A stretch of DNA of 64,000 nt from Bdellovibrionales bacterium (GCA_027317865.1 DAHVQG010000002.1:224001-288000); one strand, 5' to 3'. Positions 46,018 through 64,000 are shown, counted from the first letter of the stretch. Notes: generated by a model from the sequence alone, not told the origin. Made by a program: numbers and translations.

Positions 46018-46140
46018 GCCTGAGCCGCAAGAGTCATACAGTCGCCCTCGTGCTGACAAATACATCGCGTCGCTTTTGGCGCGCCGAAGTGGTCAACTTG
46101 GGCAATTTCTGTTAGAATGTGTCGAATATAAATGTCTCTT

Positions 46141-46493
46141 GGGGGCGTAACGGCTTCGACGTGGGTCGTGAAGCTTAAGGAGCATGCCGGGGCGATCGGA
46201 CCTCGTTAAAAACTGGTCAAACTGTTAATTGGCAACACCAATTTTCAACTTGCTGCCTAATTAGGTTCAGCACGCCGACTGTGGGAGTGGTGGCGGCTCA
46301 TAGAAGGCGTCATTTAGTCACCTCGATTGTTCGTGGCTTCTCTGCGCGAGCGGTTTAAATTTTTCAGAGGATGGCCATTTGCGAGTTTGTTTGTGGACGC
46401 GCAACTGGCAACATAAATCACAAACTAAGCATGTAGTTTGGCCTTAATGTGAATCACCTGCGGACCCGGGTTCAACTCCCGGCGCCTCCACCA
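46141..46493 (+). ncRNA. ssrA: tmRNA
   Basis: 5' GGGGGCGTAACGGCTTCGAC; 3' CCCGGGTTCAACTCCCGGCGCCTCCACCA; acceptor stem with G3-U; tag frame 46231-46260 GNTNFQLAA-stop; CTAAGCATGTAG element; 353 nt. Confidence 0.97.
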
Positions 46494-48158
46494 ATTTCGA
46501 CCCCTTGTCAATTCGACAAGGAGATCGAACTCTTTTCTGTAAGAAAATTCGAGACTTCCGCCTTTTAAAATCGGGTTCGATAAGACAACTTTGGCAAGTC
46601 TCGCCTTGTCGAGCAGATTTGTACCCAACTGCATGAAATCGCGCGACTTTTGCAGGAGTTCTATAACTCTCAGACTCGTAGTCAAAGTCTCCTGACTTGC
46701 TTTGGTATGGGCGACGATCTCAATGTCAATTTCGCCAAGAACTTTTCGCTTTTGATCGACGAAGCAATTGAATTCTTCTTCGGTCACAGCGCCTTTTTCG
46801 ACAAGCGTTTTTATATCCTGACAGCGTTTTTCGATGGCTGCCTTTTTCGCTTCAAGCACGGAACTTTGCTCCGCCGAAAAAACACTCAATGCGCTTGCCG
46901 ACGTTTTCACGTTCTCAATAAACGCGGCCGTTGTTTTCGGTGTGAATTTTGAGAATGGCTCGAAAGCTTCAACGACTCTGCTCAGGATTTCTTCCTGGCG
47001 AACGTTGATACGTCGCTCGGGGCAATCATGGCTTGCACAATGGTAATAAATATAAACTTTGCCGCTCGCTTTCTTGTGAACCTCTCCGGTAACAGAATTT
47101 CCGCAAACGCCGCACTTCATAAAATTCATAAACGGTTTTGCTATTTCATGAGAAAGCGACACTCTGGTACTCTCGGCTCGAATCGATTTCACGCGCTGAC
47201 AGCGATCAAAGAGGTCTTTTGATATAATGGGCGCGTGTTTTTCGTTCCCGGTCATAACGGTCGCACCATTTTTTGTGCGGGCTCCGTAATAAAACGGATT
47301 GCAAATCATTTTCTCGATGCAACGATCAGTAATTGGTTGGAATTCCTTTTTTTTAGAAATCTCGCCACCCACGTCCTCGCGCACCCGTTTTAATACTACG
47401 ACGGCTTTGCCTTTAAGAAATTCGGCAAGAGCTTTGTAGGAATAATTCCCGGTGGAATACAATTCGAATGCCTCGGCGATATAGCGCGCTACTTTTTCAT
47501 CAAGTTCAATCTTGGCCCGGCCGTTATCATCGCGCACATTTTTATATCCCACTGGAGCCATACTGTTCCAATAGCCGTCTTCCCATCTTTGATCCATGCC
47601 CTTCTTAATTTCGATTCTCAAGTTGTCGATATAATGCTTGGCCAAAACCACTCCCAGATAAAATCGAAGTTTTTCGCCGGGCGACGAATCTCGATTCACA
47701 ACGAGGTTGTCTCGCGTGAAGTGAAAGCAAACGCCGGCTTCAACTAAATCTTCGATCATCACGGCGGCTCGAAGCCCGCGACAGGCACGATCAATTTTAT
47801 CAAAAATCACGTTTCTAATACCGTTCATGGACACGTATTCGAGCATTTCAAAAAACTTTTTTCGATCGAGTTCTTTAGATGCCGACTCGGTAACCGACCA
47901 GCTATTTACGCATTTGAGCCCAAGGCTCTTAATATACTCGGCTGATTTATCTCTTTGTGCTTCAAGTGAATAGCCCTCTCGTTGTCCTTCCGATGAAACT
48001 CGGAAAAACTCAACAGCTAGATTTGGAGCTGCCGCAGTCTTTAACAGTTTGAGCACTGGCAAGGTTGGTCGCCGTTCAATTTTTTTCCGTTCATCTTTCA
48101 GAAGAATTTTTGCGATCTGCGCCCTTTCTTCGTCAGGAAGCTCTTTTGCGTTGTTCAA
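46425..48158 (-). CDS. Large serine recombinase (integrase)
   Basis: FRVSSEGQ catalytic Ser, SLEAQ, ESAS, DKIDRACR, APVGY, NPFYYG, HAPIISKDLFDRCQ, Zn ribbon CGVCG..YYHC; likely TTG start 48158 after AAAGGAG. Confidence 0.93.
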   Translation of the reverse strand: MNNAKELPDEERAQIAKILLKDERKKIERRPTLPVLKLLKTAAAPNLAVEFFRVSSEGQREGYSLEAQRDKSAEYIKSLGLKCVNSWSVTESASKELDRKKFFEMLEYVSMNGIRNVIFDKIDRACRGLRAAVMIEDLVEAGVCFHFTRDNLVVNRDSSPGEKLRFYLGVVLAKHYIDNLRIEIKKGMDQRWEDGYWNSMAPVGYKNVRDDNGRAKIELDEKVARYIAEAFELYSTGNYSYKALAEFLKGKAVVVLKRVREDVGGEISKKKEFQPITDRCIEKMICNPFYYGARTKNGATVMTGNEKHAPIISKDLFDRCQRVKSIRAESTRVSLSHEIAKPFMNFMKCGVCGNSVTGEVHKKASGKVYIYYHCASHDCPERRINVRQEEILSRVVEAFEPFSKFTPKTTAAFIENVKTSASALSVFSAEQSSVLEAKKAAIEKRCQDIKTLVEKGAVTEEEFNCFVDQKRKVLGEIDIEIVAHTKASQETLTTSLRVIELLQKSRDFMQLGTNLLDKARLAKVVLSNPILKGGSLEFSYRKEFDLLVELTRGRNWWRRRELNPGPQVIHIKAKLHA

Positions 48159-48162
48159 TTGA

Positions 48163-48522
48163 CTAACTCCTTTCATCAACAAAACTTTTGAGATCGCTCT
48201 CAAAATCAGAGAGTTTTCTAATTTCAATATCCATCATCAAATCAATAAATCGTTTCAGGCTCGACAGGTTAGTTGATTTTTTGCTCCGTAAATATGTAGC
48301 TCGCGATTTGTTTCTCTTGCAGCTTTTGCAGACTGTATCCTGGCGTTTTCCCTTCGAATAAAATTCAGACGCCGGAAGACTTTGTAAGCATGTAGTACAA
48401 GATTTTTTAACTATAGTCCGCGTCGCTTCGATCGAATCGGGAGATTTCAACCCATTTTTGGTTGTGATGATAAGGCCCCTAAAAAATTGTAGGACAATAA
48501 TCCGCCCCGAGGAGCGAGGCAA
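48163..48522 (-). CDS. Small basic protein with CxxC...CxxC zinc finger; start uncertain
   Basis: KSCTTCLQSLPASEFYSKGKRQDTVCKSCKR; stop adjoins the recombinase SD. Confidence 0.6.
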   Translation of the reverse strand: MPRSSGRIIVLQFFRGLIITTKNGLKSPDSIEATRTIVKKSCTTCLQSLPASEFYSKGKRQDTVCKSCKRNKSRATYLRSKKSTNLSSLKRFIDLMMDIEIRKLSDFESDLKSFVDERS

Positions 48523-48572
48523 ATACGCCTCGCACCTCCCGTTTGTTCACAATTAGTCGCCACTGTGAAATG

Positions 48573-48986
48573 TCATACCGACGATGGTTCAGTCGATCGC
48601 CTTGATCTCGGTTTTCTCACCTTGGATGTTTTAATGAACTCGCTAATTGAGGAGGCGAGCGCCTCGTCCGATTCAGATTTATCGATTAGCGAACGTAAAT
48701 AGGCTCGCTTGTCGAAGAATTTCTTTTCAAGCCAGGAGCGATCGTTCGCAATGTATCGATCGAAGAAACGCTCGATTATCGCATTTACAAGCTTCGACTC
48801 GTTTACCTTAAATTGACTGCCCGATTGCCGAATTCGCGCCACTTCGCTTGTCAGTTGCGAAATCAGGTCATCCGATATTGCGAGCCGCTTGGGCTCACCA
48901 GTGTTGGAAGAACTGTCGCTCACACGCGGGCTCGTTAATTTTATCGCAGTCTGTCGGCGATGATACACTGTTTGATTTTTGAGCAC
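48573..48986 (-). CDS. Hypothetical protein, possibly DNA-binding
   Basis: 137-aa helical basic ORF (VNESKLVNAIIERFF); GTG start. Confidence 0.55.
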   Translation of the reverse strand: MLKNQTVYHRRQTAIKLTSPRVSDSSSNTGEPKRLAISDDLISQLTSEVARIRQSGSQFKVNESKLVNAIIERFFDRYIANDRSWLEKKFFDKRAYLRSLIDKSESDEALASSISEFIKTSKVRKPRSRRSTEPSSV

Positions 48987-49152
48987 TGTTTGTATCTTTG
49001 CACTGTGGCAGGTCTAACGCCGGCACTTCATATGGATCTGGATCATAGCACGGGCTGGGTGCAAACTTTCGCAGACAAAACATCAACATTAAAAGGCCCA
49101 GCACTAACGAAGTGAACATGAAAAACAACCCCGTCCGATTATATTTATTCAC
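48895..49152 (-). CDS. Hypothetical small membrane-anchored protein
   Basis: GTGA coupling to the upstream gene; single TM. Confidence 0.45.
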   Translation of the reverse strand: MNKYNRTGLFFMFTSLVLGLLMLMFCLRKFAPSPCYDPDPYEVPALDLPQCKDTNSAQKSNSVSSPTDCDKINEPACERQFFQHW

Positions 49153-49517
49153 TTCGAATCATCTGGGAGAAGAAAGATATTCTGTCCGTTTGCCGTCGTT
49201 GAAATCGGATCGCTACCGTAAAAGCCGGATACGCCGAACTTTTCGAGATTAAAAAGCGTGTCGCGCCGAACGTCAGCGTCTCGCTTCTCAAGCCCTTGAT
49301 AGGTTGCATAGCCGGCAATGCCGCCTATCGCGGCCGATATTAGAGCGCTTGTGAGCACGGCTTGACCCTTGTTTTGACTGTCGTGCAGGGCATTGGCGCC
49401 AATGGCACCAACAGCCGCGCCAGTTCCGATACCAAGTAGTGACGACTCCGTCACAGTGGCGCAACCTTGCAGAATACCGAAAAGTAATAGAAAACAACCC
49501 ACGCACATTCGATTAAT
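49149..49517 (-). CDS. Glycine-zipper lipoprotein; start ATT 49517 or ATG 49508
   Basis: Lipobox LQGC; GIGTGAAVGAIG...AAIGGIAGY; SD AAAGGAGG. Confidence 0.7.
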   Translation of the reverse strand: MNRMCVGCFLLLFGILQGCATVTESSLLGIGTGAAVGAIGANALHDSQNKGQAVLTSALISAAIGGIAGYATYQGLEKRDADVRRDTLFNLEKFGVSGFYGSDPISTTANGQNIFLLPDDSK

Positions 49518-49869
49518 ACATCCTCCTTTTAACTCTTGATTTCACGAGAACTTTGTCTCCAACCAAAGAATAATTTTATTTATCAAAATGACTCCTAAAT
49601 TGATCGTTTCATATGATTGTTACTTCGTATAAAAGCGGCGGTTATAGATGCGCGACCGCAGCTCCATAATACCGACACTCATATCTGGATTACTTCGCTT
49701 ATATTTATCAACTCAATGCTAAAGACTTGTACGCACTATCTCTTGTATGACGATTTAACGACCGTAAATATCATCATCATTAAACATACTTTCAAAAACT
49801 CGATATTCTTCTGACTCCCCCGGAAAATCAAAAATAGTGTCCAGTAGTTTCAATTACTTGCGAAGCTCT

Positions 49870-49902
49870 GGCCCCAACTCCAGTTGGGGCCTAGTTGGGG
49901 CC
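49870..49902. repeat. Perfect inverted repeat plus direct repeat (oriT candidate)
   Basis: GGCCCCAACT-CC-AGTTGGGGCC-T-AGTTGGGGCC, next to the nuclease gene stop. Confidence 0.7.
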
Positions 49903-49903
49903 G

Positions 49904-50653
49904 CTATCGGAGAAGAAATGTGGCATTTTTTCGATTTGTAAACGGCAGAGGTGATGCACCACTTCGAACAACATCCATCGTGCATGTGTAGATTTTGGGT
50001 TCAAACTGGGATTCGAATTCAGAGTCGACTCTACGGATAGATTTCTCAATTCTGGCGTCACCGCAAACATATAATGCCGCGACGATATCGTGTGAAAAGT
50101 AATACTCCGTAAGTTTTTTGCCATACCGGACGCCGCTCTTTTCAGATGCCTCAAATTCAAGGGCCAAGCGAAACGATTTTTCCTGGCCCCTCAGTACCAA
50201 GACTGCATCCGCGTTAACAGTGCCAAACGGCCCATACTCCAAAGAAGTAGTCAGTTCTCCGCAAGCTTGGAGCATATTTTCTGATATGTAATCTTCAAAC
50301 ATAGCCGATTTTTCTAGCCGCGTTCGAATATCAGTCAGGGCAACGTCATGCAAATAGGAGTCGCTTTTGAAGTAAGCTTGCGTTATTTCAAATCGATAAT
50401 CTTTGCGAACTACGTTGAATCCTTTTTCGGTTAGACCATATATCAGTTCAAGTGAGCCGCCGCTAGGTATGCCGATTTTTGACAGATATCCATCCCGCAC
50501 AAGCCGCCCCAACCGGTATTGAACGGTTGGCCGTTTTGTCGACTCGAATAATCGGCACCGTATTTGGTCGTAGCTAATGGCCCGCTGCTCGAACGCAAAT
50601 TTCATAACCTTCCGGTCGCGCTCGGTAATCTGGACAGGACCCGTGCGCCGCAT
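49904..50653 (-). CDS. Replication-relaxation (Replic_Relax)-like protein: winged HTH plus PD-(D/E)XK-like domain
   Basis: ITERDR, RLGRLVRDGYL, YGLTEKG, HDVAL, ADAVL, LALEFEASEK...YGKKLTEY. Confidence 0.7.
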   Translation of the reverse strand: MRRTGPVQITERDRKVMKFAFEQRAISYDQIRCRLFESTKRPTVQYRLGRLVRDGYLSKIGIPSGGSLELIYGLTEKGFNVVRKDYRFEITQAYFKSDSYLHDVALTDIRTRLEKSAMFEDYISENMLQACGELTTSLEYGPFGTVNADAVLVLRGQEKSFRLALEFEASEKSGVRYGKKLTEYYFSHDIVAALYVCGDARIEKSIRRVDSEFESQFEPKIYTCTMDVVRSGASPLPFTNRKNATFLLR

Positions 50654-50654
50654 T

Positions 50655-52160
50655 TTACTTAGCCCGACCCTTCACGGTATTTTTACTGAACTCATTCGCG
50701 TCTTGAGATTTGGCTGCACTGAGTTCAAGCATTGGTTGAAAATTCCAGCTTTTGTCGTCAGAAATCGTTTTCGCTATCGCCTGAATTTTTAGCTCCAGTG
50801 CCTCTTCCGAAAGAAATGGCGCCTGAACTTCGACAAATTTGTTCCCGCCGGCCCAAACAGCGCGACCTTTGATGTCGGGTAGCGAATACGCTTTGATATT
50901 TCCAAGCGCCGTGGTGGACCCTGCGAGCGTTGACATTTTAAACACCATTCGACCAGATAGATTTTCAAGCGTTTTGGTATCAAGCGACTCTTTAATAGGT
51001 TTTTGAGTGGCGATTACCAAATGAATTGCTGCCGCCCTTGATAATTTCGCAAGTTCATCTGTCAATTCGCGAGCGCGCGCCACGAGATCAGCTTTGGATT
51101 TACTGACCGTCGTTTTACCGAATAAGACCGAGGCTTCATCGATTGCGACCACGATAAGATCCTTTTTATGGATCGATGGCTCAATTTTTTTGACGCCTTT
51201 TTCTTCCATAAATTGAAAACGCCTTTTCATTTCGTCTCGAACTGCGGTGAGCATTTTTACAGCGCCAACTTCGTCTTTGGCGATTCTCACGTTCGGCAAA
51301 TGGCCGAATTCTTTGAGTTCGACTCCGTGTTTTAGGTCGATCAAGTAAAACTGAATGTGCCGCCACTGACCAAGGCAAACGAGCAGCTGACATTCAAACA
51401 CGCTTTTGCCGCCGCCGGACGTGCCGGCAATTAACAAGTGCGGTAGGTCGCGAATGTCTTGCGTTACTGTCCCGTTGACAGAAGCTCCAACCAAAAATGT
51501 AAACGGCGATTTGAGATCCTTTTCCAGGTCTTCATACAAGAACATTTTTCCGAGTTCCCGCTTGCAGAGCGAGATCTCAATAGTTCTGCGATCAGGCGAT
51601 GGTTCAATTTGTTCGACCATTTGACCAAATGCATATTCGAGATCGGATTTTTTACCTTCAAATCGATCCACCCCCACACCGATTGATCGAACAATAACTT
51701 TGCAGCGTTCGTCGTCCTTTGGTACGACCGCGAGAATTTTTGGCTGCTCACCCTTTGCGTTGCTCAAGCCAACGGAGTTGAAATTATTTTGAAGTTTTCT
51801 TCTTTCCACGAACGCTCTCAAGCCAAGTGCGCAAAGACTTGTGTATGTGACACCTGTGAGTAGTACCAAAAAGTGCGACCATTTTGGCCAGTGTTTTAGC
51901 CATGCCGTAAACTTCGCTGTAAATAGATTTGGCCAAATCCAGTGCAGTGCCTTCAAATATGCATAATCGCCATACGTCGCTGCAAATATGAGAAGAACAA
52001 GTGACGTTGAAAATATAATGAATTCGCTCGAACGAAACTTTATCCGCTTAAGACCCGCCCACGCCATTGAACCCGTCAGCGCAATGACAATGCCGACAGC
52101 GACCACAAACCGTTCAAGACTGTCGTTTTTGGCAACTATACCGTTATTCGGTGGTTTCAT
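50655..52160 (-). CDS. FtsK/SpoIIIE-family ATPase with N-terminal TMs (TcpA-like coupling protein)
   Basis: LPHLLIAGTSGGGKS, LIDLK.GVE, EMKRR, VVAIDEA, RAAAIHLVIATQKP, GRA. Confidence 0.9.
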   Translation of the reverse strand: MKPPNNGIVAKNDSLERFVVAVGIVIALTGSMAWAGLKRIKFRSSEFIIFSTSLVLLIFAATYGDYAYLKALHWIWPNLFTAKFTAWLKHWPKWSHFLVLLTGVTYTSLCALGLRAFVERRKLQNNFNSVGLSNAKGEQPKILAVVPKDDERCKVIVRSIGVGVDRFEGKKSDLEYAFGQMVEQIEPSPDRRTIEISLCKRELGKMFLYEDLEKDLKSPFTFLVGASVNGTVTQDIRDLPHLLIAGTSGGGKSVFECQLLVCLGQWRHIQFYLIDLKHGVELKEFGHLPNVRIAKDEVGAVKMLTAVRDEMKRRFQFMEEKGVKKIEPSIHKKDLIVVAIDEASVLFGKTTVSKSKADLVARARELTDELAKLSRAAAIHLVIATQKPIKESLDTKTLENLSGRMVFKMSTLAGSTTALGNIKAYSLPDIKGRAVWAGGNKFVEVQAPFLSEEALELKIQAIAKTISDDKSWNFQPMLELSAAKSQDANEFSKNTVKGRAK

Positions 52161-53064
52161 AGTAACTACTCGATAGTGAAATGATGAGATCCGATCCGGA
52201 GTCGATCGTTACGTAGCTCGGAGTTTGGCCGAGTTTATTTGCCTGCTCATTTGCTTCCATCTGCGCCACATTCGATAGCCCATTGTAAAAGCCGTTTCTA
52301 AGATTCGCCTTTGGCGTTGGCAAGATCGACTGCCCCAGAGATTCCTTTTGTATCATGACGTCAGACATTCCGCTGATCATCGAAAGACCGATGACAGATG
52401 CCATCCGATCGCCCGTATTGCCGTGATAATCACCAATCACGCCCGGCCGATAGTCCTTGGAGCTTAAGGCCCGCGCACTGATTTTGAATTCATTGCCGTC
52501 CGGTAAAAGCCCATGATCGAAATTGATGTAGACGCGATCGCCGTGACCGGGGTAGCTCGACTGCCCAAATAGAATAGTCTGCGGCGGAAGGCTACCGCCG
52601 CCGAATTTGTGAGCGGCGCCATATGGTAGAACAACTTGCACGCCCTCCGGGTAGCGGGTGTCAATGCCCGAAGCGAACTTCCCAATAAAATTTGATCCAA
52701 TCGGTAATTTTTCGTATGACTCGCCAGGAGTAATCACTTGTTTTGCCCGGTAGCGCAGGTGTAACGGCTGAAGCATTGTCCTAGGCGATTTAGGTGCATG
52801 GCTCAATACGCCGCCGACTTTAGCAACTGTAGCAGCCAGTTGCGCGGCATTGGTTCCGGCGCCTTTTTGAATCAACGACACGTTACTCTGCCTAATCGCG
52901 GTCGCAACGGGTGACTTTCGAATCGAAGGCAGAAGTGAGATAACAATACCGAGAACGGTCAATGCAAACGCCGCAAGGATCGTATGTTTTCGGTTCAATA
53001 CTTTTTTGCCGCCCTCATTCCTAAAGAAAAAATCCCGACTACGCTCACGAATATTTATTTTCAA
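52144..53064 (-). CDS. VirB10/TrbI-like T4SS protein
   Basis: Single TM then beta-rich domain (LPIGS.F.G, DRVYINFD..L.PDG, YVTIDSG); TTGA coupling gives start 53064. Confidence 0.65.
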   Translation of the reverse strand: MKINIRERSRDFFFRNEGGKKVLNRKHTILAAFALTVLGIVISLLPSIRKSPVATAIRQSNVSLIQKGAGTNAAQLAATVAKVGGVLSHAPKSPRTMLQPLHLRYRAKQVITPGESYEKLPIGSNFIGKFASGIDTRYPEGVQVVLPYGAAHKFGGGSLPPQTILFGQSSYPGHGDRVYINFDHGLLPDGNEFKISARALSSKDYRPGVIGDYHGNTGDRMASVIGLSMISGMSDVMIQKESLGQSILPTPKANLRNGFYNGLSNVAQMEANEQANKLGQTPSYVTIDSGSDLIISLSSSYYETTE

Positions 53065-53786
53065 AAATACCGCCAAGGGATACTTCGCTCCGCGAACGTA
53101 TTCATGAAGCGCAACTTGAGCGTGAGGTTCGTCCTTTGCTTTCTTGTAAACAGCAGTCGAACTCGCGCCGACTGCCCATGCTGTACGATGCCGCTTTGAA
53201 CGACAAACTCTTGAAGCGGTAACCGATTTGAGTGATAGCTGAGATCAACTTGAAGACCCGACAGCGATACCGCATTCGTCGAGATGTTCCTAACGGTGAG
53301 GTCTATGAGGTAAAAGGATCGGCCACGAAACTGCTCGATCCGATCAACCTTTACGCCGAGCAGGTGACCCACACGAAATGCGACATGGGGGTTAGAAACT
53401 ACATGAATCGGCGAAACCAAAATGGCCGGCTTCATAGGGTCCGATGAATTTTTGTCCTCCCAATACACATGGACAAGATCGTCATATCTCTCACTCGATG
53501 GACGTAGTAAAAATCCATAAGTGTGTTTTGCACTATACACAAATAAGTTTGTTGCGACGGCACCGCGCGGTTGTACGGCGATGTCTTTGTCTGTGAACTC
53601 GATGCCGTAATAATTCGAATTACCGAGAACCACTTTTTTTGGTTTTTCTTGAAACCTCAATACGGTCGAACGGCCCATTCGTAAATAGATCGGGATCATT
53701 TTTGACCCGTTTGCTTCGACAGTTCGCACATTACCGGCATACGCATGGCATCCGAGAAATAATGCCAACCAAATTAGCCACCGCAA
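53061..53786 (-). CDS. VirB9/TrbG-like secreted T4SS protein
   Basis: Signal peptide; STVLRF, VVLGN, TNLFVYS..HTYGF; lies between the virB8- and virB10-like genes. Confidence 0.6.
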   Translation of the reverse strand: MRWLIWLALFLGCHAYAGNVRTVEANGSKMIPIYLRMGRSTVLRFQEKPKKVVLGNSNYYGIEFTDKDIAVQPRGAVATNLFVYSAKHTYGFLLRPSSERYDDLVHVYWEDKNSSDPMKPAILVSPIHVVSNPHVAFRVGHLLGVKVDRIEQFRGRSFYLIDLTVRNISTNAVSLSGLQVDLSYHSNRLPLQEFVVQSGIVQHGQSARVRLLFTRKQRTNLTLKLRFMNTFAERSIPWRYF

Positions 53787-54383
53787 TTATTTTCCTTGGT
53801 AAACAATTTCGCCGGCTACGTAAAGACCGAGAGGATTCCACTGAGTGCGATCGCCTTGTACGAGTTGAAATGACACTTGAGTGGGGACGACAAGCGGAAC
53901 ATTATCAACTCTCAATACAACATCAAACGTTGCAACCGTACTATCTTTTGTGATTTGAATGCCAAGTCCGGCCACACTTTGTTTAACCTTCTTACCCATA
54001 AAATCCTTGTCTTTTTCTTGACTGAGTTCGGCGATTTCTTGGGCACGGAAATTATCCGTCACAAGCGGTGCAATATCTTCGCCGATGTGATTCGGGTCGA
54101 GTGTATCCCACTGGTATGCAAGTCCCACATACTCTTCAACAAAACGTTTTATGTTGTCTTCACCGAGCGGAACCGGCCGTCTAGTACCTTGAACAAATGT
54201 GTAATCGGCGCCTTGCTGAATCGCGACAATGGGATTTCGATTTGACAGCGTCAGACATAAGATAACGAGGAGCGCGCACAAACCCGCGACGACTGCGCCC
54301 CCAACTTTGTACAAAAATAAAATTCGATTGAGTGCCACCCATTGGTTAATGGGTTTGCCATTTTCAATTGCTTTGAGTAACAA
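53787..54383 (-). CDS. VirB8/TrbF-like T4SS protein
   Basis: Single TM, FVEEYV, C-terminal RTQWNPLGLYV. Confidence 0.7.
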   Translation of the reverse strand: MLLKAIENGKPINQWVALNRILFLYKVGGAVVAGLCALLVILCLTLSNRNPIVAIQQGADYTFVQGTRRPVPLGEDNIKRFVEEYVGLAYQWDTLDPNHIGEDIAPLVTDNFRAQEIAELSQEKDKDFMGKKVKQSVAGLGIQITKDSTVATFDVVLRVDNVPLVVPTQVSFQLVQGDRTQWNPLGLYVAGEIVYQGK

Positions 54384-54384
54384 A

Positions 54385-55332
54385 TTATCTCCTTCTTTTG
54401 TTTATATTCTTAGCTTCTTGAGGTAGCCCGACTTGGGAGTACCAGTTTGAAAAATTCCTGACATGTGGCTTCATTCGGTCAGCCATGATCTGTGCGCGTC
54501 CACTGATGGGGTTAGTCAAAGGTTTAGCCGCAAAGTTCGATGCTGCAAGAGTCCCACCCACGGCCTTTCGACCCAAAACCCTTGATGAAAGCATCGCCGC
54601 CTTCGTCGCCATGAGTCCGGGTGCAGCCGCAAGGCCAGCCGCCGCCGATTGCAATCCATCGCCCAGAAGCGATTTTGCAAATAGAGGAATGAGAAGCATC
54701 GAAACACCGATCAGTAAGTTCATCACCATCGACAAAATGTAGTCGTCAACTCCAACGACCTTTGGATTCATTGCAAGCTTTAATAAAAGTGCGCCGAGGA
54801 GGGTCCATAAAACCTTCCATGTGGCGACACTCACCAGACCCCGATATAAATTGCCCGTGATGCGAGCCGTGGACTTGGGCACGTAGCAAAGAATCATAAG
54901 CGGCGCGCACACAAACAATATTGCCCAAACAAAATTCATGAGCGTAATCGACGCGAAAAATCCGATATAAGCGATGAGGTAAGCGCCAATTGCAAAAATA
55001 TAAATAACGCTTGCTCTAAGATCAAATAGGCTACCTGACTTACCCTGTGAGTTCGGGCCAAGGTGCTTGATTGCGGTCCATAAAGCGTGCGTGTGGTCGA
55101 TGTGTGCCGTTATTTGATCACCCAGCATACCGATCGTGTTAACTACAGTCGCAAAAGAAACGAGAAGCAGGATCGAAATAACCGTTCGCTTGAGTATATC
55201 GTTGACGTTGGGCGAGCTTTTTAAGAATTCAAAAACTATCAAAAGCGTGACCACAGCCGGGAGCAGTATCCAATAAACTTGAACCATCTCGCCGTGGAGA
55301 CTTTTCGCATATACGAATAAATTTTCAAACAT
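54385..55332 (-). CDS. VirB6/TrbL-like polytopic membrane protein
   Basis: About 6 TMs, APLMIL..VP, Ala/Gly-rich tail. Confidence 0.65.
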   Translation of the reverse strand: MFENLFVYAKSLHGEMVQVYWILLPAVVTLLIVFEFLKSSPNVNDILKRTVISILLLVSFATVVNTIGMLGDQITAHIDHTHALWTAIKHLGPNSQGKSGSLFDLRASVIYIFAIGAYLIAYIGFFASITLMNFVWAILFVCAPLMILCYVPKSTARITGNLYRGLVSVATWKVLWTLLGALLLKLAMNPKVVGVDDYILSMVMNLLIGVSMLLIPLFAKSLLGDGLQSAAAGLAAAPGLMATKAAMLSSRVLGRKAVGGTLAASNFAAKPLTNPISGRAQIMADRMKPHVRNFSNWYSQVGLPQEAKNINKRRR

Positions 55333-55334
55333 TT

Positions 55335-56021
55335 CTAAAATCTCGATAAGCTTGTATCAAGCTTGAAATTCTGAAATCCACCGTCGAGATCGCGATCCAC
55401 TTTTTGAAAATCAGTTACCTGATCCTTGTCGGCTTTGTTATTCATGGCCAGCTGTTCGCTCTCAAGTTTCAGCATTTGAGTATTGAGGCGAATAAGCTGG
55501 CTGAGACTTCGCAAAATCTCAGCACTCGTTTCTGCCTGCATCCGAGCGGCACCCTTGGGTGAAGCCTGGCGGGCTTGTACCAGTATCTTTATCGAATTTG
55601 CTTCTTGTTCCGACGAATACTGCTTAAATGAGTCGACCATGCGTAGTGACTCAGCGACACTTTGATCGTTAAGAAGCTCTAATGCCGCAGCTCTACTCTT
55701 CGGCACTCGACCATAAATCGACGAGATCATGTCAACGGCTTGTTTGAAATTTTGTAGATCAGCCAATATTCGATCATCATGCACTGGAAGAGTCGAGAGA
55801 AGTCCGATCGAATTTTCGAGACCGGAATTTATAACGTGCATGTAATCGGACATGTCACGCCCTTGCTGGACCATTGTTTCGAATTCCTGGTAGTCTTGGA
55901 TATTCTGAGCCAGTATCTTTAATAAGATCGGAATGTCACCTCCGAAGAAATCCGCCCTGGCGGGCGGACTTATGAATAATAGCGTAAACGCTGTAACTGC
56001 CGTCCAGCGAAGTATTTTAAT
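55335..56021 (-). CDS. VirB5/TrbJ-like secreted helical protein; probable non-canonical ATT start
   Basis: Frame is open 49 codons upstream of the track ATG and encodes a signal peptide IKILRWTAVTAFTLLFISPPARA-DFFGGD; SD AAAGGAGG at 56026-56033. Confidence 0.65.
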   Translation of the reverse strand: MKILRWTAVTAFTLLFISPPARADFFGGDIPILLKILAQNIQDYQEFETMVQQGRDMSDYMHVINSGLENSIGLLSTLPVHDDRILADLQNFKQAVDMISSIYGRVPKSRAAALELLNDQSVAESLRMVDSFKQYSSEQEANSIKILVQARQASPKGAARMQAETSAEILRSLSQLIRLNTQMLKLESEQLAMNNKADKDQVTDFQKVDRDLDGGFQNFKLDTSLSRF

Positions 56022-56045
56022 ACGACCTCCTTTGAATCAGTTCGA

Positions 56046-58487
56046 TTAAGCGCTCTTCTTCTGTTCATCTTTTTCACTCGCCAGCTTTTTTAGAATCTCG
56101 ATTTTTTTCAGCTCCGGATGCCTTCTTTCAAGCTCTTGAATTCGCGCTTTATCGCCGGCGTCGCTGGTGCAGATCCAGTATGAAAGTGGCTCGGAGGTCA
56201 ACCGTAAAACGATTTGATTTTCATCCTGTAGAAAAAAGAATTCACTATACGCACCTTTTACGACTTCTAAGCTCTTTATCGCTTCAACCTGCGCGTCGGT
56301 GAAATCAAATGTTTCTTGAAAATCCTTCCAGTCAATTTTTCGTTGCTTTAGAATAATGACGCTTGTCGAGTTTGGCATAAGCGCATCGCGGATCTCGGGA
56401 TCAGCCAAAAAATCGCGATAGTTCTGGCTAATGCACCAAATACCGGCGTTGTACTTTCGCCACGTTCTGTAGCAGGTAATAACAAACTGCTTTGATAGCT
56501 CGCCGCTTTTAAAAAACCGCTCGGCCTCGTCACAAATGAGTAGATATGGTCGCGCGAGATCCGATGCCGCTGCATCCTGAATGTACGATGTCAAAAGTAA
56601 TAGCAAAATGTCTTTAAGGTCCGGATGGTTCGTGAGTCCATTTACCTCGATGGTGACAAGATCCTTTGACAAATTGATTGTACTTGGTCCATCGAGCATT
56701 CTACCGTAAGCCGTTTCACCACACCACGAAAATAGAATCTGCGCGAATTTTTGCATTTCTGGATCGTTATGCTTTTCTAGTGCGGTTTTCAGATCCGACA
56801 GAAATGGAACACGCGCGGCCGACCCTTTGTATACGGCAAAAATCGCTTCTTCGAGCATGGCCTTTTCACGTTTTCCTAAAGATTTTTGGTTCGGGTCTTT
56901 AAGAATAAGTTCTAAAATTGCGAGTATCAATTTAACCCGCGCCGGAGATGGCGTGGCTTCGCCGTTTGGAAGATCAAACACATTAATCCGAATGCCGCTT
57001 TCTAAGTTCAAGTCGACAAATTCGCCGTCTAATACTTCGAGCAATTTTTGCGAACTTGCGCCATTATCGATCCAAAAAAGCCGGGGCGTCGGTTTTTGAC
57101 CGTAAAACATGAGCATCAGCTGCGAGATCGTGAAGCTCTTGCCGCTGCCTGTTCCGCCGAAAATCAGACCGTTCCACGCGGGCAATTCCTGCGCAAACGG
57201 TGAAAACGAAAATAGACCGCCGTCACGGTTTGGGATGAGGCACACTGGGCTTTGGTTCCCGCGCCAGTTACCATAGAGCGGGAGAAGATGTGCAACATTA
57301 CTACTCTTCATTTTGTAGTGGCGAAGGCCGCTACACGCACCGGGTAGGGCGTCGATAAAAACGTCAAAACCTGGCAGCGTTTCTACGATCCCTTCAGATT
57401 GACCCATCTGTCGAAACGCTTTTAGAACTTCGTCCGATTTCTCTTCGAGCTCCTCTTGCGATTTAGCCCAAATGATTACGGTAAAATCCATCGATACGAG
57501 TCGCTCACTTCCGTCGAGTAATTCACGTAGCAAGGATTCGATATCGTTTAGTTTTGACTCGCTTTCGAGGTCAGAAACATTTTCTGATCCGCCGGCCATC
57601 GAATTGGCCACGCGACGCTTGAGTTCTAGGCGCTGCCGTTCGCGTATTTGATCCAAAATTTTTATATTCTGGCTCATCCAAAAGTGAAACGGTAACGACA
57701 AAGTCAAATTGTTAATTATAGAGCTATATGTCGAACCTTCAGGAAGCGTTTTCAAGGTGACTGTGCGGAAAAAATAATCGCCAACTCGCAAATGACCACG
57801 ATGGACTTCAATATCTGAAAGTGTCAACTGTTCAATTATTGACGGAGCGAGTGGGTCCCCGGATTCACGCATCGACGGTAATGGGTAGTGTTCTGCGCGA
57901 TCAAGGTTTAGGTATTGAAATACAAGACTAAACCACTCCTCGGGCTCAAGTTTTGCCGGCTTTAGCCCCGAATGTATCAGCGAAGATTCAATTTGCTTTA
58001 ACGCTCGATCGAATTTTTCTCTATGAGCTGTATATTCTGACTCTGCAATGGGTTCGTATTTTTTTTGCGACTCCCAAAAACGGCGCTTTTTATAAGAATA
58101 TGGTTTGCTTCGAATAAAAAGATAGAATTCCGGCACGAAGTAATTTTTTTGCGCTTCATTTCTCTTTAGAAACGATATCCGAGCCTCGGCAATTGGCCGA
58201 TAAATCTCTGGGGCTTCACTTGAAATCGCTGCATGTTCGGTGAGCAGGGCGCTTACATTTGGGGTCACGCGATAAAAGATCTGAAGCTTGAGCCCTTCTT
58301 CCGTACCAATTAACAGATTTTCGACTTTTCTTGTAAAGGTATTGATTTCGTCGGGTGTGCGGCACGAAATATCGACTCCTGTTAGCCGAAATGCACCGCC
58401 AAGTGAGCCGTCAGAATACACCATTAAATCTTGATCGAAGTGCCAAAACGGCAGGCGATCCGCGAGACCCGCAATATTATTTTTCAT
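56046..58487 (-). CDS. virB4: VirB4/TraC-like T4SS ATPase
   Basis: About 813 aa; NGLIFGGTGSGKS, IDNGAS, INVFD, LLICDEA, WRKYNAG...ISQ. Confidence 0.9.
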   Translation of the reverse strand: MKNNIAGLADRLPFWHFDQDLMVYSDGSLGGAFRLTGVDISCRTPDEINTFTRKVENLLIGTEEGLKLQIFYRVTPNVSALLTEHAAISSEAPEIYRPIAEARISFLKRNEAQKNYFVPEFYLFIRSKPYSYKKRRFWESQKKYEPIAESEYTAHREKFDRALKQIESSLIHSGLKPAKLEPEEWFSLVFQYLNLDRAEHYPLPSMRESGDPLAPSIIEQLTLSDIEVHRGHLRVGDYFFRTVTLKTLPEGSTYSSIINNLTLSLPFHFWMSQNIKILDQIRERQRLELKRRVANSMAGGSENVSDLESESKLNDIESLLRELLDGSERLVSMDFTVIIWAKSQEELEEKSDEVLKAFRQMGQSEGIVETLPGFDVFIDALPGACSGLRHYKMKSSNVAHLLPLYGNWRGNQSPVCLIPNRDGGLFSFSPFAQELPAWNGLIFGGTGSGKSFTISQLMLMFYGQKPTPRLFWIDNGASSQKLLEVLDGEFVDLNLESGIRINVFDLPNGEATPSPARVKLILAILELILKDPNQKSLGKREKAMLEEAIFAVYKGSAARVPFLSDLKTALEKHNDPEMQKFAQILFSWCGETAYGRMLDGPSTINLSKDLVTIEVNGLTNHPDLKDILLLLLTSYIQDAAASDLARPYLLICDEAERFFKSGELSKQFVITCYRTWRKYNAGIWCISQNYRDFLADPEIRDALMPNSTSVIILKQRKIDWKDFQETFDFTDAQVEAIKSLEVVKGAYSEFFFLQDENQIVLRLTSEPLSYWICTSDAGDKARIQELERRHPELKKIEILKKLASEKDEQKKSA

Positions 58488-58782
58488 AGATATTGGTTCG
58501 TAGCCTTTCTTGAAATTCAGGTTGCGCGCCTGCGGCATAATGGCCCGGCGTTAAGTAAAATCGCAACAGGTGGAGTAAAAATCCATCAGGTTTATTGCGC
58601 TTTCCTAGATATAGTACGAGCAGCATCGCAACTGGCACACATACGACAATCGGTAAAGGTAGGTGAAGAACATTGAGAATCGAGAGAGCAATCAAAGCCG
58701 CGATGAGATCGAGGGCCTCCATGCCCCCGATCTTCACTCTAACGTCAAGCCCACGGTGAACTGCGGACCTATTCAACTCCAC
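58477..58782 (-). CDS. VirB3-like protein
   Basis: KIGGMEALD, two TMs, KRNKPDGFL; directly upstream of virB4. Confidence 0.7.
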   Translation of the reverse strand: MELNRSAVHRGLDVRVKIGGMEALDLIAALIALSILNVLHLPLPIVVCVPVAMLLVLYLGKRNKPDGFLLHLLRFYLTPGHYAAGAQPEFQERLRTNIYEK

Positions 58783-59112
58783 CTAATAACCTCCGCCAAC
58801 AGCACCTTGCAGCCAGTGAATTATAATCGGCGCGAGACATCCGACGATGCATGCAATGATAATTAGTATCATTCGACCTTTTGCACCCTGATCACCAGAA
58901 ACCGCAAGAATAGCGGCATAGACAAGGCCCAAGATAGAAATCGCTGGCAATACGACAGTGATGAGCTTGCCTGTTAAACCTGCAACACGCCCCGACAGTT
59001 CATCGGCGCCAACGCCGCCATAGCTTTGTGCGAATGCGAAATGCGGGTAAAGAGTCATCAAAGCAAATACGCCGATCAAAACGCACGCCAATGCAATAGT
59101 TGACTTTTTCAC
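58783..59112 (-). CDS. VirB2/TrbC-like pilin
   Basis: Signal peptide ending AFA, two hydrophobic helices separated by GDQGAKGR. Confidence 0.75.
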   Translation of the reverse strand: MKKSTIALACVLIGVFALMTLYPHFAFAQSYGGVGADELSGRVAGLTGKLITVVLPAISILGLVYAAILAVSGDQGAKGRMILIIIACIVGCLAPIIIHWLQGAVGGGY

Positions 59113-59450
59113 TCGGTAACGTCTGGCACAAGAACGAGTCGCTGCGGCAAATATCGGCCAATCTTCATGTACACGTGACCATTCGTCTCGCCACTTGAAT
59201 ATCCATTACCTACAGGTACACGATGAGAAAATTTACCGTTAATATCAACTGGCGAATGAACGACGTAATCGATTCGATCTTCATTGGCCTCTTTCGGTCG
59301 AAGATAGAGAATGGTGCGAGGCGCATCGAGCACAAGTCGATATTCGCCAAATTCAGGGACATAAAATGCAACACCGGCATTATATTTTTCGCCGCTTTCA
59401 GGGTCTAACCAAAACAACTCTTCTTTTTTTGTTTTTTTAATTTTTTCCAT
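59109..59450 (-). CDS. Hypothetical beta-rich protein
   Basis: SD GAGG before ATG 59450; GTGA coupling to the pilin gene. Confidence 0.6.
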   Translation of the reverse strand: MEKIKKTKKEELFWLDPESGEKYNAGVAFYVPEFGEYRLVLDAPRTILYLRPKEANEDRIDYVVHSPVDINGKFSHRVPVGNGYSSGETNGHVYMKIGRYLPQRLVLVPDVTE

Positions 59451-59509
59451 TTTAGAAATCCTCAAATTATTTGTAATTGACCGACAGTAAATCCATTCCG
59501 AGATTTTAC

Positions 59510-59851
59510 TTACGCCGCGACGAGTTCCTCTCCTGAATCTTTTCTCAGGGCTGAAACCAGTTCACTTCGCAAATTATCGAGTGCATGGCTAAAAATCTTT
59601 ATTGTTAAATCGATCGGCAGTTCAATTTGTGCGGCGATTGAAGAAAACGACAAGCCCTCCCAGAATCTCAAATAAACAACCAAACGTTCTTCGCGAGACA
59701 GTTTGGCGACACGGTCGCGCACGAGTGCGGCCTGGCGGTCTTTTCGTTGGTCGTAGCGCCAATGTTTTTTTCGTTCATAATCAGCGAAAACTCTATTATC
59801 CATCTCACGCTCAATCATTTTTGGACTCCAATATTGAAGTTTCGTGTTCAC
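59510..59851 (-). CDS. Sigma-70 region 4-like HTH protein
   Basis: LSREERLVVYLRFWEGLSFSSIA...ALDNLR. Confidence 0.8.
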   Translation of the reverse strand: MNTKLQYWSPKMIEREMDNRVFADYERKKHWRYDQRKDRQAALVRDRVAKLSREERLVVYLRFWEGLSFSSIAAQIELPIDLTIKIFSHALDNLRSELVSALRKDSGEELVAA

Positions 59852-59979
59852 CAGAACCGTCCGTATAACCCGTATTTGATTCGAGCTTCATCGCGTGCCT
59901 TTCTTAATCGTTCCTCATCAACTTTTATTTCAAAAAGTATATAGTGGACCCGCTTAAAAATTTGGCGGAGCTTATCCAT
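59848..59979 (-). CDS. 43-aa small protein not in the ORF track
   Basis: MDKLRQIFKRVHYILFEIKVDEERLRKARDEARIKYGLYGRFW; SD GAGG; overlaps the upstream stop and the downstream GTG (GTGA). Confidence 0.6.
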   Translation of the reverse strand: MDKLRQIFKRVHYILFEIKVDEERLRKARDEARIKYGLYGRFW

Positions 59980-60451
59980 TGGATGCCTCTTTTGAAAATG
60001 GGATTACATTCGAGGTTTGCCTCTCGACAGTTTCATCGGGGCGCCGAAAACTAACGACGTTTTCAATGCTGACAACGCGAGCTTCTGGCTTGCCATTACC
60101 GCCGTTTTCTAGAAATTCCTGACACTCGATACAAAAAGTGCAGTCCGGCTGTGCATCGAGACGCCTGGGATCAATTTCTTCTTCGCATCCTTCACACACA
60201 CCGAAAATCCCCATGTCGATTCGTCTGAGTGCTCGCGCCAATTTGCCAGCTTGCCTTTCGATATGTCGAAACATACCCATTCGTTGATTGCGATCGCTCA
60301 GTTCTTTTGCTTCATCGAGTGGGTCGGGTAAAATTAATGGGTCTTCGACAATCGCGCGCAATTCGGATTCGAGACCCTCCCACATTTGGTGGAGGGCGCG
60401 CTGTCGCTCCAAGATATTGTCTTTGAATTTTTGTAGCTGTTCGTTTGTCAC
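59972..60451 (-). CDS. TraR/DksA C4-type zinc finger protein
   Basis: DPLDEA (DxxDxA), ALRRIDMG.FGVCEGC, RLDAQP...CIECQ; GTG start after GAGGAGGAG. Confidence 0.9.
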   Translation of the reverse strand: MTNEQLQKFKDNILERQRALHQMWEGLESELRAIVEDPLILPDPLDEAKELSDRNQRMGMFRHIERQAGKLARALRRIDMGIFGVCEGCEEEIDPRRLDAQPDCTFCIECQEFLENGGNGKPEARVVSIENVVSFRRPDETVERQTSNVIPFSKEASNG

Positions 60452-60881
60452 GTTTTTCTCCTCCTCGTGGGGGGAAAAATTAGCCCCACGACTTTCTGTT
60501 ACTGCAAGAGGAGTCAGCGATCGTGCCAACAGACGAAAAGTAATTGGATTGATTAAGAAAAAATGGATTTTGCTCGAACGTGGCCGAACTTAAAAATGAA
60601 CGCAGTTACGTCCACGAATTTTGAATTTCAATGTGTTATCGCAAACATGATGAAAAGACGTATCTACGTCCATTCGATCACTCAAATTTAGTGCGGAATA
60701 ATTTGGAGAATTAGTTCACGTCGAACAGGACTCGACGCCGGCGGGCCATAATGACTGCTTCATTTCCGGCCGGCACCGGCCCGCATTGATTTAAAGTGCC
60801 TGCATTTTGGGCCGGGCTTTCCGTCGGCTGCGGCTCATATTCGCACCTTTTAATACGGCTTACGATCGTAGAGGCTACTAT

Positions 60882-62933: not shown

Positions 62934-62964
62934 AATATTATTACACCCGATCGACTAAAACGAC

Positions 62965-64000
62965 TTAGCCTCCGTTTGTCGGATAAGCATACATTGTTAC
63001 ATTTGTCACAGTACCGTTTTGAAAAATACATGGGGCTTGCGAGAACGGGTCGCCTTCACCTTGGTAAGACCCTATATTTGGCATGTAGATGCACGCCTCG
63101 TTAGACTCGCATAATCCGTTATTATTGCCATTTGGGTTATGAACGTAATCAAAATTTATTTCCATAGCATTGGGTAAAAATATATGACCCTCTGGATCAG
63201 TAACAGCGGTATTTCCGTTTACAGCTTGCGGACAAGTGGCGCCTGGCACAAATACCTGGTTTTGGCTATCGCCATTCAAACTGGCGTTTCGAAGCACAGT
63301 ATCGCTTTTCGACAAACGCCAATCCCAAATGCGACAATTCCCACTTGAACATCGTCCGTAATTTGTCGTAGAGGGGAATGCTCCGCCGTCAACCCCCCAA
63401 CCTCTCAAAATTGTTGAAAAGTCGAACCAGTCAAGCGCCGAGGTGTACGCTTCAAGCCCATTTGTATTCGTCGAATTTGAGGTGTCTGTAGTTGTAACCT
63501 TCCCGATGAACGAACTGGCCAGGGTATAAGGTGTGTAAAGGTAGGCCGTCGAAAGATTGCCGCCACCGCCCCAATTTGTCGTCGAACCACCAGACCCATT
63601 TGTTCCGGCACCTGAACTGCCGCCGCTCGTACAAGTGGTGGTAACAAAGCCCGGAGACGCGCCCGCGCTATTTAGCGTGCAGTTTGCAGTGGAATTGTTA
63701 CCGATCAAAACGTAGTTATAAAATGCATTACCTGTGCTGCTGGCGTCCGCCTCAATTCCAGTTTGATCGTCAGTGACAGCCGAATTGTAGATCGCCGAAT
63801 TAGTCGAACCATCCAAAAAAATTCCAATTTTTGAATTCGTAGCAGCAACGTTAACGAAGGTGTTGTTGTTCGCCCCGCTTGCCGGATGAATTGCATAAAG
63901 ATTAATATTTGCGAATGTACCGCCAACTAGTGTGTCGCCTGATGAGTAACTGTGCCAACCATAATCGCCCGAATTCGTCACAGTTGCCTGTACGATGATG
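62965..64000 (-). CDS. C-terminal part of a large Asn/Ser/Thr/Gly-rich extracellular beta-helix protein; 5' end outside the window
   Basis: Frame open to the window edge; NNNTF/SNxx repeats, GRCSSGNCRIWDWRL, NGLCESNEACIY.PNIG.YQG. Confidence 0.7.
   Translation of the reverse strand, partial: IIVQATVTNSGDYGWHSYSSGDTLVGGTFANINLYAIHPASGANNNTFVNVAATNSKIGIFLDGSTNSAIYNSAVTDDQTGIEADASSTGNAFYNYVLIGNNSTANCTLNSAGASPGFVTTTCTSGGSSGAGTNGSGGSTTNWGGGGNLSTAYLYTPYTLASSFIGKVTTTDTSNSTNTNGLEAYTSALDWFDFSTILRGWGVDGGAFPSTTNYGRCSSGNCRIWDWRLSKSDTVLRNASLNGDSQNQVFVPGATCPQAVNGNTAVTDPEGHIFLPNAMEINFDYVHNPNGNNNGLCESNEACIYMPNIGSYQGEGDPFSQAPCIFQNGTVTNVTMYAYPTNGG

Follow-up and report, generated by a model that had tools for sequence, protein, structure and literature searches.

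Reviews of bacterial conjugation state that every Gram-negative type IV secretion system (T4SS) uses the coupling protein VirD4, and that TcpA is confined to a subset of the Firmicutes systems of mating-pair formation (MPF) type MPF_FA (Guglielmini et al.; 2025 nomenclature review). Here we describe a run of genes that does not fit this division, found in a stretch of 64,000 nucleotides (nt) from a Bdellovibrionales bacterium (GCA_027317865.1, DAHVQG010000002.1:224001-288000), of which positions 46,141 to 60,881 are shown; this whole stretch is henceforth called the window. The run is the transfer and integration module of an ICE (integrative and conjugative element), and it joins a monoderm-type coupling and processing pair to a diderm channel, a hybrid character that is phylum-wide. 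We regard it as likely that the element is self-transmissible, by way of a MOB_C-like cut, a TcpA/FtsK-type coupling ATPase and a minimal VirB-like channel.

Among described systems, the TcpA family (pCW3 TcpA and its homologues in Tn916 and ICEBs1) resembles the ATPase of the run in its length of about 500 amino acids (aa), its two N-terminal transmembrane (TM) helices, its FtsK_SpoIIIE motor and the position of its gene beside that of a relaxase other than the histidine-hydrophobe-histidine (HUH) type. It differs in that TcpA is described as going with Firmicutes MPF_FA systems and mostly with relaxases of the mobility (MOB) classes MOB_T or MOB_M, whereas the ATPase here departs from the monoderm MPF_FA association, being encoded in Bdellovibrionota, in a diderm host, together with VirB9/VirB10-like genes and a MOB_C-like protein. 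The class MOB_C, represented by TraX of pAD1 and MobC of CloDF13, consists, according to the 2025 review, of restriction-endonuclease-like relaxases of both Gram-negative and Gram-positive elements, and Pfam family PF13814 (Replic_Relax) stands for MobC in CONJscan. The protein next to the ATPase shares with this class the Replic_Relax family, the succession of a winged helix-turn-helix (wHTH) and a candidate restriction-endonuclease-like domain, and conserved acidic and lysine residues; it is, however, very distant from the known members, and the streptococcal MOB_C elements described in one paper use VirD4-type coupling proteins. The streptococcal class 8 of integrative and mobilizable elements is built in a comparably compact way, with a coupling protein followed by a MOB_C relaxase, by small genes and by a serine integrase; those elements belong to monoderms, lack a T4SS of their own and use VirD4, whereas a full diderm T4SS and an FtsK-type ATPase are found here. 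The order B2-B3-B4-B5-B6-B8-B9-B10, the VirB8 fold, the VirB10/TrbI domain and the VirB2 pilin are shared with MPF_T systems such as R388 Trw and pTi VirB; unlike these, the run has no VirD4, VirB11 or VirB1 and no identified VirB7, and its VirB4 agrees best with the F-type TraC model. Finally, an ATPase followed in the same order by a Replic_Relax-family protein is known from Bacillota (pLW1071, pMU3262 and phage RBClin15), but those ATPases have 383-385 aa, score 112-199 bits against the ATPase profile and are encoded with their partner outside any diderm T4SS operon.

A search of the full-text literature, mostly non-subscription and apart from the supplements of ICE surveys, returned nothing on conjugative T4SSs of Bdellovibrionota or on VirB4 together with FtsK in Bdellovibrio, and the nomenclature review was the sole source that it yielded on TcpA-like proteins in diderms; two papers that came up for mobile elements and conjugal transfer in Bacteriovorax seem unrelated, to judge by title. 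A sequence-only reading of the window had proposed an ICE with a hybrid transfer module and had listed its minus-strand open reading frames (ORFs) from a TraR-like gene to a large serine recombinase; all of these ORFs are present in a tight run at 46425-60529, and their family assignments hold. Its view of the hybrid as a non-standard class stands in part: a TcpA/FtsK-type ATPase encoded together with a diderm T4SS contradicts the reviews, whereas the pairing of an FtsK/SpoIIIE protein with a replication-relaxation protein is already known from plasmids and phage-plasmids of Bacillota.

A TcpA/FtsK-type ATPase paired with a MOB_C-like protein

The ATPase, the candidate coupling protein, is encoded at 50655..52160 on the minus strand, as are all genes of the run, and the start of its gene overlaps the end of the VirB10 gene by 17 nt. 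Two N-terminal TM helices precede a motor that matches FtsK_SpoIIIE (PF01580, 2.7e-21, 76.5 bits). Its best relatives of solved structure are the pCW3 TcpA entries 6o1z, 6o1x and 6o1w (E 2.2e-23 for 6o1z), followed by FtsK (1.4e-18) and then EssC/EccC; no TrwB or VirD4 chain occurs among its nine PDB matches, and no VirD4 family was matched in Pfam at E<=0.01. The motor is hence nearer to TcpA and FtsK than to VirD4 or TrwB, and the earlier description of this protein, the sole candidate coupling ATPase of the element, as of FtsK/TcpA type holds. In PLSDB, Bacillota plasmids supply the best full-length matches, FtsK/SpoIIIE-domain proteins that are 24-31% identical; these plasmids include some of Clostridium perfringens in which the gene follows tcpM. 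A profile built from the Bdellovibrionota ATPases gives TcpA-like proteins 199-222 bits over nearly its whole length and chromosomal FtsK 84-113 bits over the motor core only. When a maximum-likelihood tree is built from 33 rows, the ATPases from Bdellovibrionota group in one clade (98/97) with two deep branches. Judged by sequence, the ATPase is of TcpA/FtsK type and not VirD4. The label T4CP2, followed as a lead to diderm TcpA-type proteins, was discarded, as one paper applies it to the coupling proteins of IncX3, IncN, IncC and IncF plasmids.

Two nucleotides after the ATPase stop begins the gene (49904..50653) of the relaxase candidate of the MOB_C superfamily, a protein with an N-terminal wHTH and a putative nuclease domain that scores 37.4 bits against PF13814, for which the gathering cut-off is 25.3. 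In its AlphaFold2 (AF2) model (predicted local distance difference test, pLDDT, 94.4) the wHTH spans residues ~5-91 (Z ~10), and this domain occupied the VIA list. Across 16 homologues, H102, D103, E125, D149, E166, K172 and Y184 of the C-terminal domain are invariant, and the set D149, E166, E168 and K172 is invariant or nearly so. No plasmid protein in PLSDB matches it at E<=1e-3. Because PF13814 is the MobC of CONJscan and the review lists MOB_C as a class, this DNA-processing enzyme can be seen as a distant member of the MOB_C superfamily with its wHTH and PD-(D/E)XK-like domains and so as not new; the Replic_Relax-like nuclease of the sequence-only reading belongs to the established Replic_Relax/MOB_C class. 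Right after the relaxase stop, at 49870..49902, lies a hairpin with a repeated arm (GGCCCCAACT / AGTTGGGGCC x2), its arms being of 10 nt and one of them duplicated, which could be a terminator or a candidate origin of transfer (oriT).

A minimal VirB-like channel

Upstream of the pair in the direction of transcription stand the genes for the channel, whose assignments differ in kind. The VirB10/TrbI-like protein (52144..53076) is bitopic, with one TM helix, and exceeds the cut-off of PF03743 TrbI at 42.1 bits. The VirB9-like protein (53061..53786) carries a signal peptide and matches CagX below the cut-off (4.7e-5, 23.7 bits) and the NCBIfam VirB9 model at 3.6e-6; CagX is matched by 9 of 17 relatives, and the best PDB match of the candidate profile, R388 TrwF/VirB9, has an E value of only 0.028. 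These two, proposed earlier as parts of a diderm T4SS, are thus upheld by a TrbI match above cut-off and by weak VirB9 matches. For the bitopic VirB8-like protein (53787..54383) there was no sequence match, its profile found nothing meaningful in the PDB, and just 2 of 15 relatives match Pfam VirB8 at E<=1. Its AF2 model (pLDDT 84.5), however, has 47 Foldseek matches at E<=0.001, among them TrwG of Bartonella and of R388 (the latter within the assembled T4SS), CagV and Brucella VirB8 (E 2e-5 to 6e-5). For this candidate, then, the structural likeness to T4SS proteins is there, the lack of which would have told against the sequence-only reading.

The VirB4 ATPase (56046..58538) matches P-loop_TraG (1.5e-24) and TraC_F_IV (2e-17); in NCBIfam the TraC-F-type model comes first at 302 bits (cut-off 567), followed by VirB4_CagE at 198 bits, both below their cut-offs. 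The nearest plasmid VirB4s, those of Myxococcus and Thermus, are 23-25% identical, and the gene context on the Myxococcus plasmid does not reveal the same system. The polytopic VirB6/TrbL-like membrane protein (54385..55332) is recognised by its hydrophobic segments and by TrbL matches in 6 of 16 relatives, the VirB3/TraL-like protein (58477..58782) by the topology of a two-TM hairpin with weak matches to DUF3487 (8/16 relatives) and TraL (1/16), and the VirB2/TrbC-type pilin (58783..59112) by a TrbC match (2.6e-4), by TrbC or T4SS_pilin matches in 14 of 15 relatives, and by a hydropathy profile with a signal peptide and two hydrophobic segments. Position and size mark the VirB5-position protein (55335..55874), which has no Pfam match in any of 16 relatives (these have 220-264 aa) and whose profile found nothing meaningful in the PDB. 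Because a signal-peptide-like in-frame stretch (55875-56045) lies upstream of the first ATG, GTG or TTG codon of this gene, its true start probably lies upstream, at a codon other than these three, which would add a signal peptide.

Beside VirB4, then, the likeness to MPF_T consists of a matched fold for VirB8, weak sequence matches for VirB9 and VirB6, and topology for VirB3. As for MPF_F, the TraC-F-type match falls below its cut-off and no TraW, TraU, TraN, TraH or TraF family occurs among the module ORFs.

Distribution, gene order and the missing canonical parts

Relatives of the ATPase at E<=1e-20 are found in 103 of 401 sampled Bdellovibrionota genomes (90 of the 337 of high quality) and in 81 of 203 genera, many genomes having several copies; none of 301 sampled Myxococcota genomes has a match at E<=1e-22. 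With an alignment of six ATPase sequences as query and one genome per species, a locus scan returned 59 loci, of which 52 are strong matches, 50 under names of Bdellovibrionota lineages and two under unspecific names; the remaining seven, from other phyla, are weak and lack every other gene of the module. A Bdellovibrionales bacterium, by name, contributes the closest locus, at 99% identity. In a protein atlas the Bdellovibrionota clusters were listed first, then Bacillota TcpA-like proteins and one Campylobacterota cluster, which is a lead only.

Family profiles made from the first loci and run over all of them recovered nearly everywhere the same order of 14 genes: sigma4-o118-VirB2-B3-B4-B5-B6-B8-B9-B10-ATPase-Replic_Relax-lipoprotein-o137. 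The sequence-only reading had suggested a survey of Bdellovibrionota for the same synteny, and this recurrence answers it. Among 67 non-duplicate Bdellovibrionota loci, the Replic_Relax gene adjoins that of the ATPase in 58/61 and the VirB10 gene does so in 55/62, while the full VirB2-B10 set is present in 41/52, several of the misses being due to cargo insertions or contig ends. In some loci (L039:2971-8004, L045:2601-8115, also L038 and L052) about 5 kb of variable cargo lies between VirB4 and the VirB5-position gene, in which NYN, TPR, FRG and DUF4268 proteins are encoded along with a DNA methylase and a protein that partially matches Transgly.

None of the canonical parts was found to accompany this order in the window's genome, a draft that is 99.2% complete. 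VirD4, VirB11, VirB1 and HUH relaxases are absent from the scanned ORFs of the element, as had been claimed for those of the window, and the scan of the remaining element ORFs beyond the window yielded no relaxase and no coupling protein. Genome-wide there is no match to PF02534 (T4SS-DNA_transf), PF03432 (Relaxase), PF08751 (TrwC), PF03389 (MobA_MobL) or PF07514 (TraI_2), and PF10412 (TrwB_AAD_bind) has just two matches of P-loop length (37-39 residues) on other contigs. A VirD4 or canonical relaxase elsewhere, which would have undone the proposal, was thus found neither in the rest of the element nor in the genome scans, although absence from an incomplete draft falls short of proof. Fragments of a second element of this family, divergent from the first, also lie in this genome, with homologues of VirB4, B5 and B6 on contig C12 and of Replic_Relax and o137 on contig C14, and there is a lone Replic_Relax paralogue at C42:117248-118006.

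Integration at ssrA and the borders of the element

The integration target is ssrA, the gene of the transfer-messenger RNA (tmRNA), which lies at full length on the plus strand at 46141..46493 (ARAGORN; Rfam RF00023, 174.5 bits, model positions 1-374). Junction comparisons place the crossover zone of attL (ATTTC) at 46494..46498, directly 3' of the tmRNA CCA end. Element DNA begins at ~46499 and extends beyond the end of the window, and the limits 46425..60530 given by the sequence-only reading have to be revised at both ends: the gene run belongs to a larger ICE than was first seen. In a congener, G040, a stretch of 14,741 nt agrees with window 46105-60845 at 99.1% identity, and the chromosome to the left of the element is 66-73% identical between the two; the host-specific differences end at 46459, within the tmRNA gene.

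The site is empty in a conspecific population, represented by contigs from another sample (run X4), taken in what may be the source study of the window. These follow the left flank nearly letter for letter and depart from the window at 46497/46498, and one of them joins ssrA to 30 letters that occur once in the window's genome, at C33:32795-32824 on the minus strand; this junction is an empty attB at ssrA. Next to that place, at C33:32825-32829, lies an attR-like remnant, and the sequence before the C33 flank reads ...CCTCCACCATTTTC, a degenerate copy of the tmRNA 3' end (...CCTCCACCAATTTC at attL). G040 is 95% identical to C33, beginning exactly at 32829. Since the final 77 nt of contig C22, which holds the window, are the reverse complement of C33:37042-37118, the simplest path runs from window 46499-89699 to C33:37041-32829 and gives an element of ~47.4 kb. 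The right end and this size are provisional, because the assembly graph is branched: C33 continues, and the last 55 nt of contig C11 also match C33. With a site-specific recombinase at one end, junctions that can be defined, a site found empty elsewhere and a module for conjugation, the element qualifies as an ICE, its link to the right end being provisional. In a second X4 contig the agreement with the tmRNA gene breaks off at 46497, and the letters beyond have no counterpart in the window's genome; there may be another element at the same ssrA site in that sample.

Other comparisons added nothing to these borders. Direct repeats of the ssrA 3' end across the genome amounted to short matches at chance level, the same-family genomes G048 and G016 have no usable homology for the right flank, and the contig of the congener G325 ends 1.4 kb after ssrA. 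Runs X2 and X3, which are one data set filed twice, hold short contigs only, 100% identical and scattered across the element, and establish neither host nor borders.

At this end of the element the large serine recombinase (46425..48227), the likely integrase/excisionase core, has all three domains of its family: Resolvase (2.7e-15), Recombinase (7.7e-9) and the zinc ribbon Zn_ribbon_recom (1e-6). The 3' end of its ORF overlaps ssrA by 69 nt on the opposite strand, and its frame crosses attL, so that of its 600 aa 576 residues come from the element and the last 24 are antisense to the host tmRNA gene; in the predicted circular form the frame is computed to end 31 residues past the junction, at 607 aa. 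Together with attL and the empty site, these domains sustain the earlier statement that the ICE was integrated by a large serine recombinase. Of the 52 loci in which the next large downstream gene was scanned with Pfam, 25 have a large serine recombinase there and 17 a tyrosine integrase, the other 10 giving a different result or none; many of these recombinase genes adjoin tRNA or tmRNA genes. In 20 of the 25 serine recombinase loci the 3' end of the gene runs into a tRNA or tmRNA gene on the opposite strand, and the tRNA-targeting site therefore seems to lie inside the end of the recombinase gene itself.

Transfer, replication or segregation

For a self-transmissible ICE the following course may be envisaged. 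The recombinase would excise the element as a circle, and the MOB_C-type protein would bind and cut an oriT. A membrane-anchored, hexameric TcpA/FtsK-type ATPase, presumably coupled in translation to VirB10, would serve instead of VirD4 as receptor of the substrate and as motor for the DNA, and would dock at VirB10. The DNA would then leave through a VirB-like channel with VirB3, VirB4, VirB6 and VirB8 at the inner membrane, VirB9 and VirB10 at the outer membrane, and a VirB2 pilin with the VirB5-like protein, a channel that would dispense with VirB11 and VirB1.

The same genes may be looked at differently, with the ATPase and the Replic_Relax protein serving the replication or segregation of the excised element instead of acting as coupling protein and relaxase, and with a T4SS that either works without a dedicated coupling protein or serves another end, e.g., protein delivery in predation. 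The Bacillota pairs lend themselves to this: besides pMU3262, the Geobacillus plasmid pLW1071 (L124, 19392-21279 and 28472-32557) has an FtsK/SpoIIIE and replication-relaxation pair along with a separate pair of its own MobQ relaxase and a VirD4-like protein, and the FtsK/SpoIIIE-replication-relaxation operon of RBClin15, a Bacillus phage-plasmid, is read in one paper as having a replication or segregation function. In Bdellovibrionota, too, the pair occurs without an adjacent T4SS at four loci (L040, L044, L053 and L104), in three of which a Mom-family protein comes next; however, such loci are compatible with mobilizable elements that bring along a coupling protein and a relaxase of their own, which is what they may be. 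Moreover, at 55 of 62 loci the pair forms part of the T4SS operon, with overlap between genes; the genome scans yielded no further coupling protein or relaxase; and according to the review members of MOB_C are experimentally proven relaxases, while TcpA is an accepted coupling protein. We therefore consider a replication or segregation module unlikely and a role of the pair in DNA transfer the better explanation.

Besides the Bacillota pairs, a number of observations weigh against the transfer of DNA by a MOB_C-like enzyme and a TcpA-like motor. The NCBIfam model MobC_subf matches the Replic_Relax protein at E 1.2e-6 with 28 bits against a cut-off of 200, which places it outside that subfamily; the Pfam score on which the MOB_C assignment draws is modest; just 9 of 16 homologues reach PF13814 at E<=0.01; and the Foldseek matches of the nuclease fold are weak, with BsaWI (E 0.007) and FokI (0.0097) at the top and none at E<=0.001. 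Within the channel, VirB5 and VirB3 are assigned by position and topology. In the tree the Bdellovibrionota clade, TcpA, the Bacillota pair proteins and FtsK meet at one fork with long branches, so that either TcpA or FtsK may be the sister group of the ATPase clade. A branched assembly graph underlies the right end and the size given for the element, and transfer, nicking and coupling are all what we infer from families, folds and gene order. With these points counted, self-transmission remains the probable reading.

A variant of it has the FtsK-like motor pump double-stranded DNA (dsDNA), as TraB of Streptomyces does, after a double-strand or non-covalent cut by the PD-(D/E)XK enzyme, which would then not pilot a single strand. 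In its favour, the ATPase stands closer to TcpA and FtsK than it does to VirD4, and the 2025 review relays a suggestion, prompted by the TcpA structure, of a double-stranded intermediate and describes the MOB_C enzymes as restriction-endonuclease-like. TcpA systems are still generally treated as conjugating single-stranded DNA (ssDNA). Nothing in the sequence tells travel as ssDNA from travel as dsDNA, and the latter is speculation. It is also doubtful whether a VirB-type channel could pass dsDNA. We hold this variant to be quite improbable. A broader form of the idea, namely that the family is a phylum-wide, unclassified diderm class where a TcpA/FtsK-type translocase, paired with a MOB_C nuclease, stands in VirD4's place, and where DNA moves by a mechanism other than relaxase-piloted ssDNA transfer, as dsDNA or with no covalent pilot protein, seems to us doubtful, though less remote than dsDNA pumping taken by itself or the replication module.

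Accessory genes and cargo

Several small genes accompany the coupling pair and the channel genes. Between the recombinase and the relaxase candidate lie a 119-aa ORF without a family in Pfam or NCBIfam (48163..48522), which might possibly be a recombination directionality factor; a conserved 137-aa protein, o137 (48573..48986), syntenic in nearly all relatives and without a meaningful Pfam match in any of 16, which is possibly a relaxosome accessory or regulator; and a conserved glycine-zipper lipoprotein, o119b (49149..49508), also syntenic, with the lipobox LQGC and with Gly-zipper families in 14 of 16 relatives. The last is a candidate VirB7-like or exclusion lipoprotein and perhaps the VirB7 analogue of the proposed channel. 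At the other side of the channel genes stand a conserved soluble protein of 118 aa, o118 (59109..59465; syntenic, Pfam 0/11), a small sigma-70 region-4 protein (59510..59851; PF04545 Sigma70_r4, 2.5e-6; syntenic in many relatives) and a DksA/TraR-type C4 zinc-finger protein (59972..60529; PF01258, 5.6e-11; NCBIfam DksA_like, 1.2e-17). The sigma-70 region-4 protein likely regulates the transfer operon, and operon control would probably be exerted by it, by the DksA/TraR protein and by an XRE-type repressor at the far end of the element.

The cargo begins at 60846..64000 with proteins of 683 and 753 aa that belong to no family, and continues past the window to the end of contig C22 (G000:C22:284846-313699 in the window's genome). 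Farther along, the element codes for more proteins without a family, for two-component and sigma-54 regulators, for a solute-binding protein, a YcaO protein, an RHS-repeat protein, a CheB/CheR-histidine kinase hybrid and an IS91 transposase. At its far end a small resolvase/invertase and a trypsin-like protease are encoded beside the XRE-type regulator. The cargo has been reshuffled between the two species: in G040 the counterpart of window coordinates 66702-77632 lies inverted and follows immediately on 60845, while 60846-66701 and 77633-88938 are not at this locus, where there is instead a copy of the insertion sequence IS66 that is 100% identical to C33:38067-40552. Comparison of the island with itself brought up no repeats at the points of rearrangement.

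Such rearrangement of the cargo, the presence of IS91 and IS66 copies and the VirB5-position ORF without a standard start codon could be taken as signs of a decaying or defective relic that no longer transfers. The module ORFs, however, are all open in both species at 99.1% identity, and the second species carries the element at the same site that the conspecific population has empty. A relic is accordingly very improbable in our view.

Implications

The stated rule on VirD4 and TcpA is broken by an ICE family, both conserved and recently mobile, that roughly one in four of the sampled Bdellovibrionota genomes carries. Schemes of detection that require VirD4, or that tie TcpA-type proteins to monoderms, may miss such elements or call their T4SSs non-conjugative. 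The family also offers a diderm setting for the question of whether it is ssDNA or dsDNA that FtsK-like motors drive through a T4SS, and pLW1071 would be a useful system for testing the role of the pair of FtsK/SpoIIIE and replication-relaxation proteins. For the predatory bacteria themselves, these elements are likely a main route of gene exchange.

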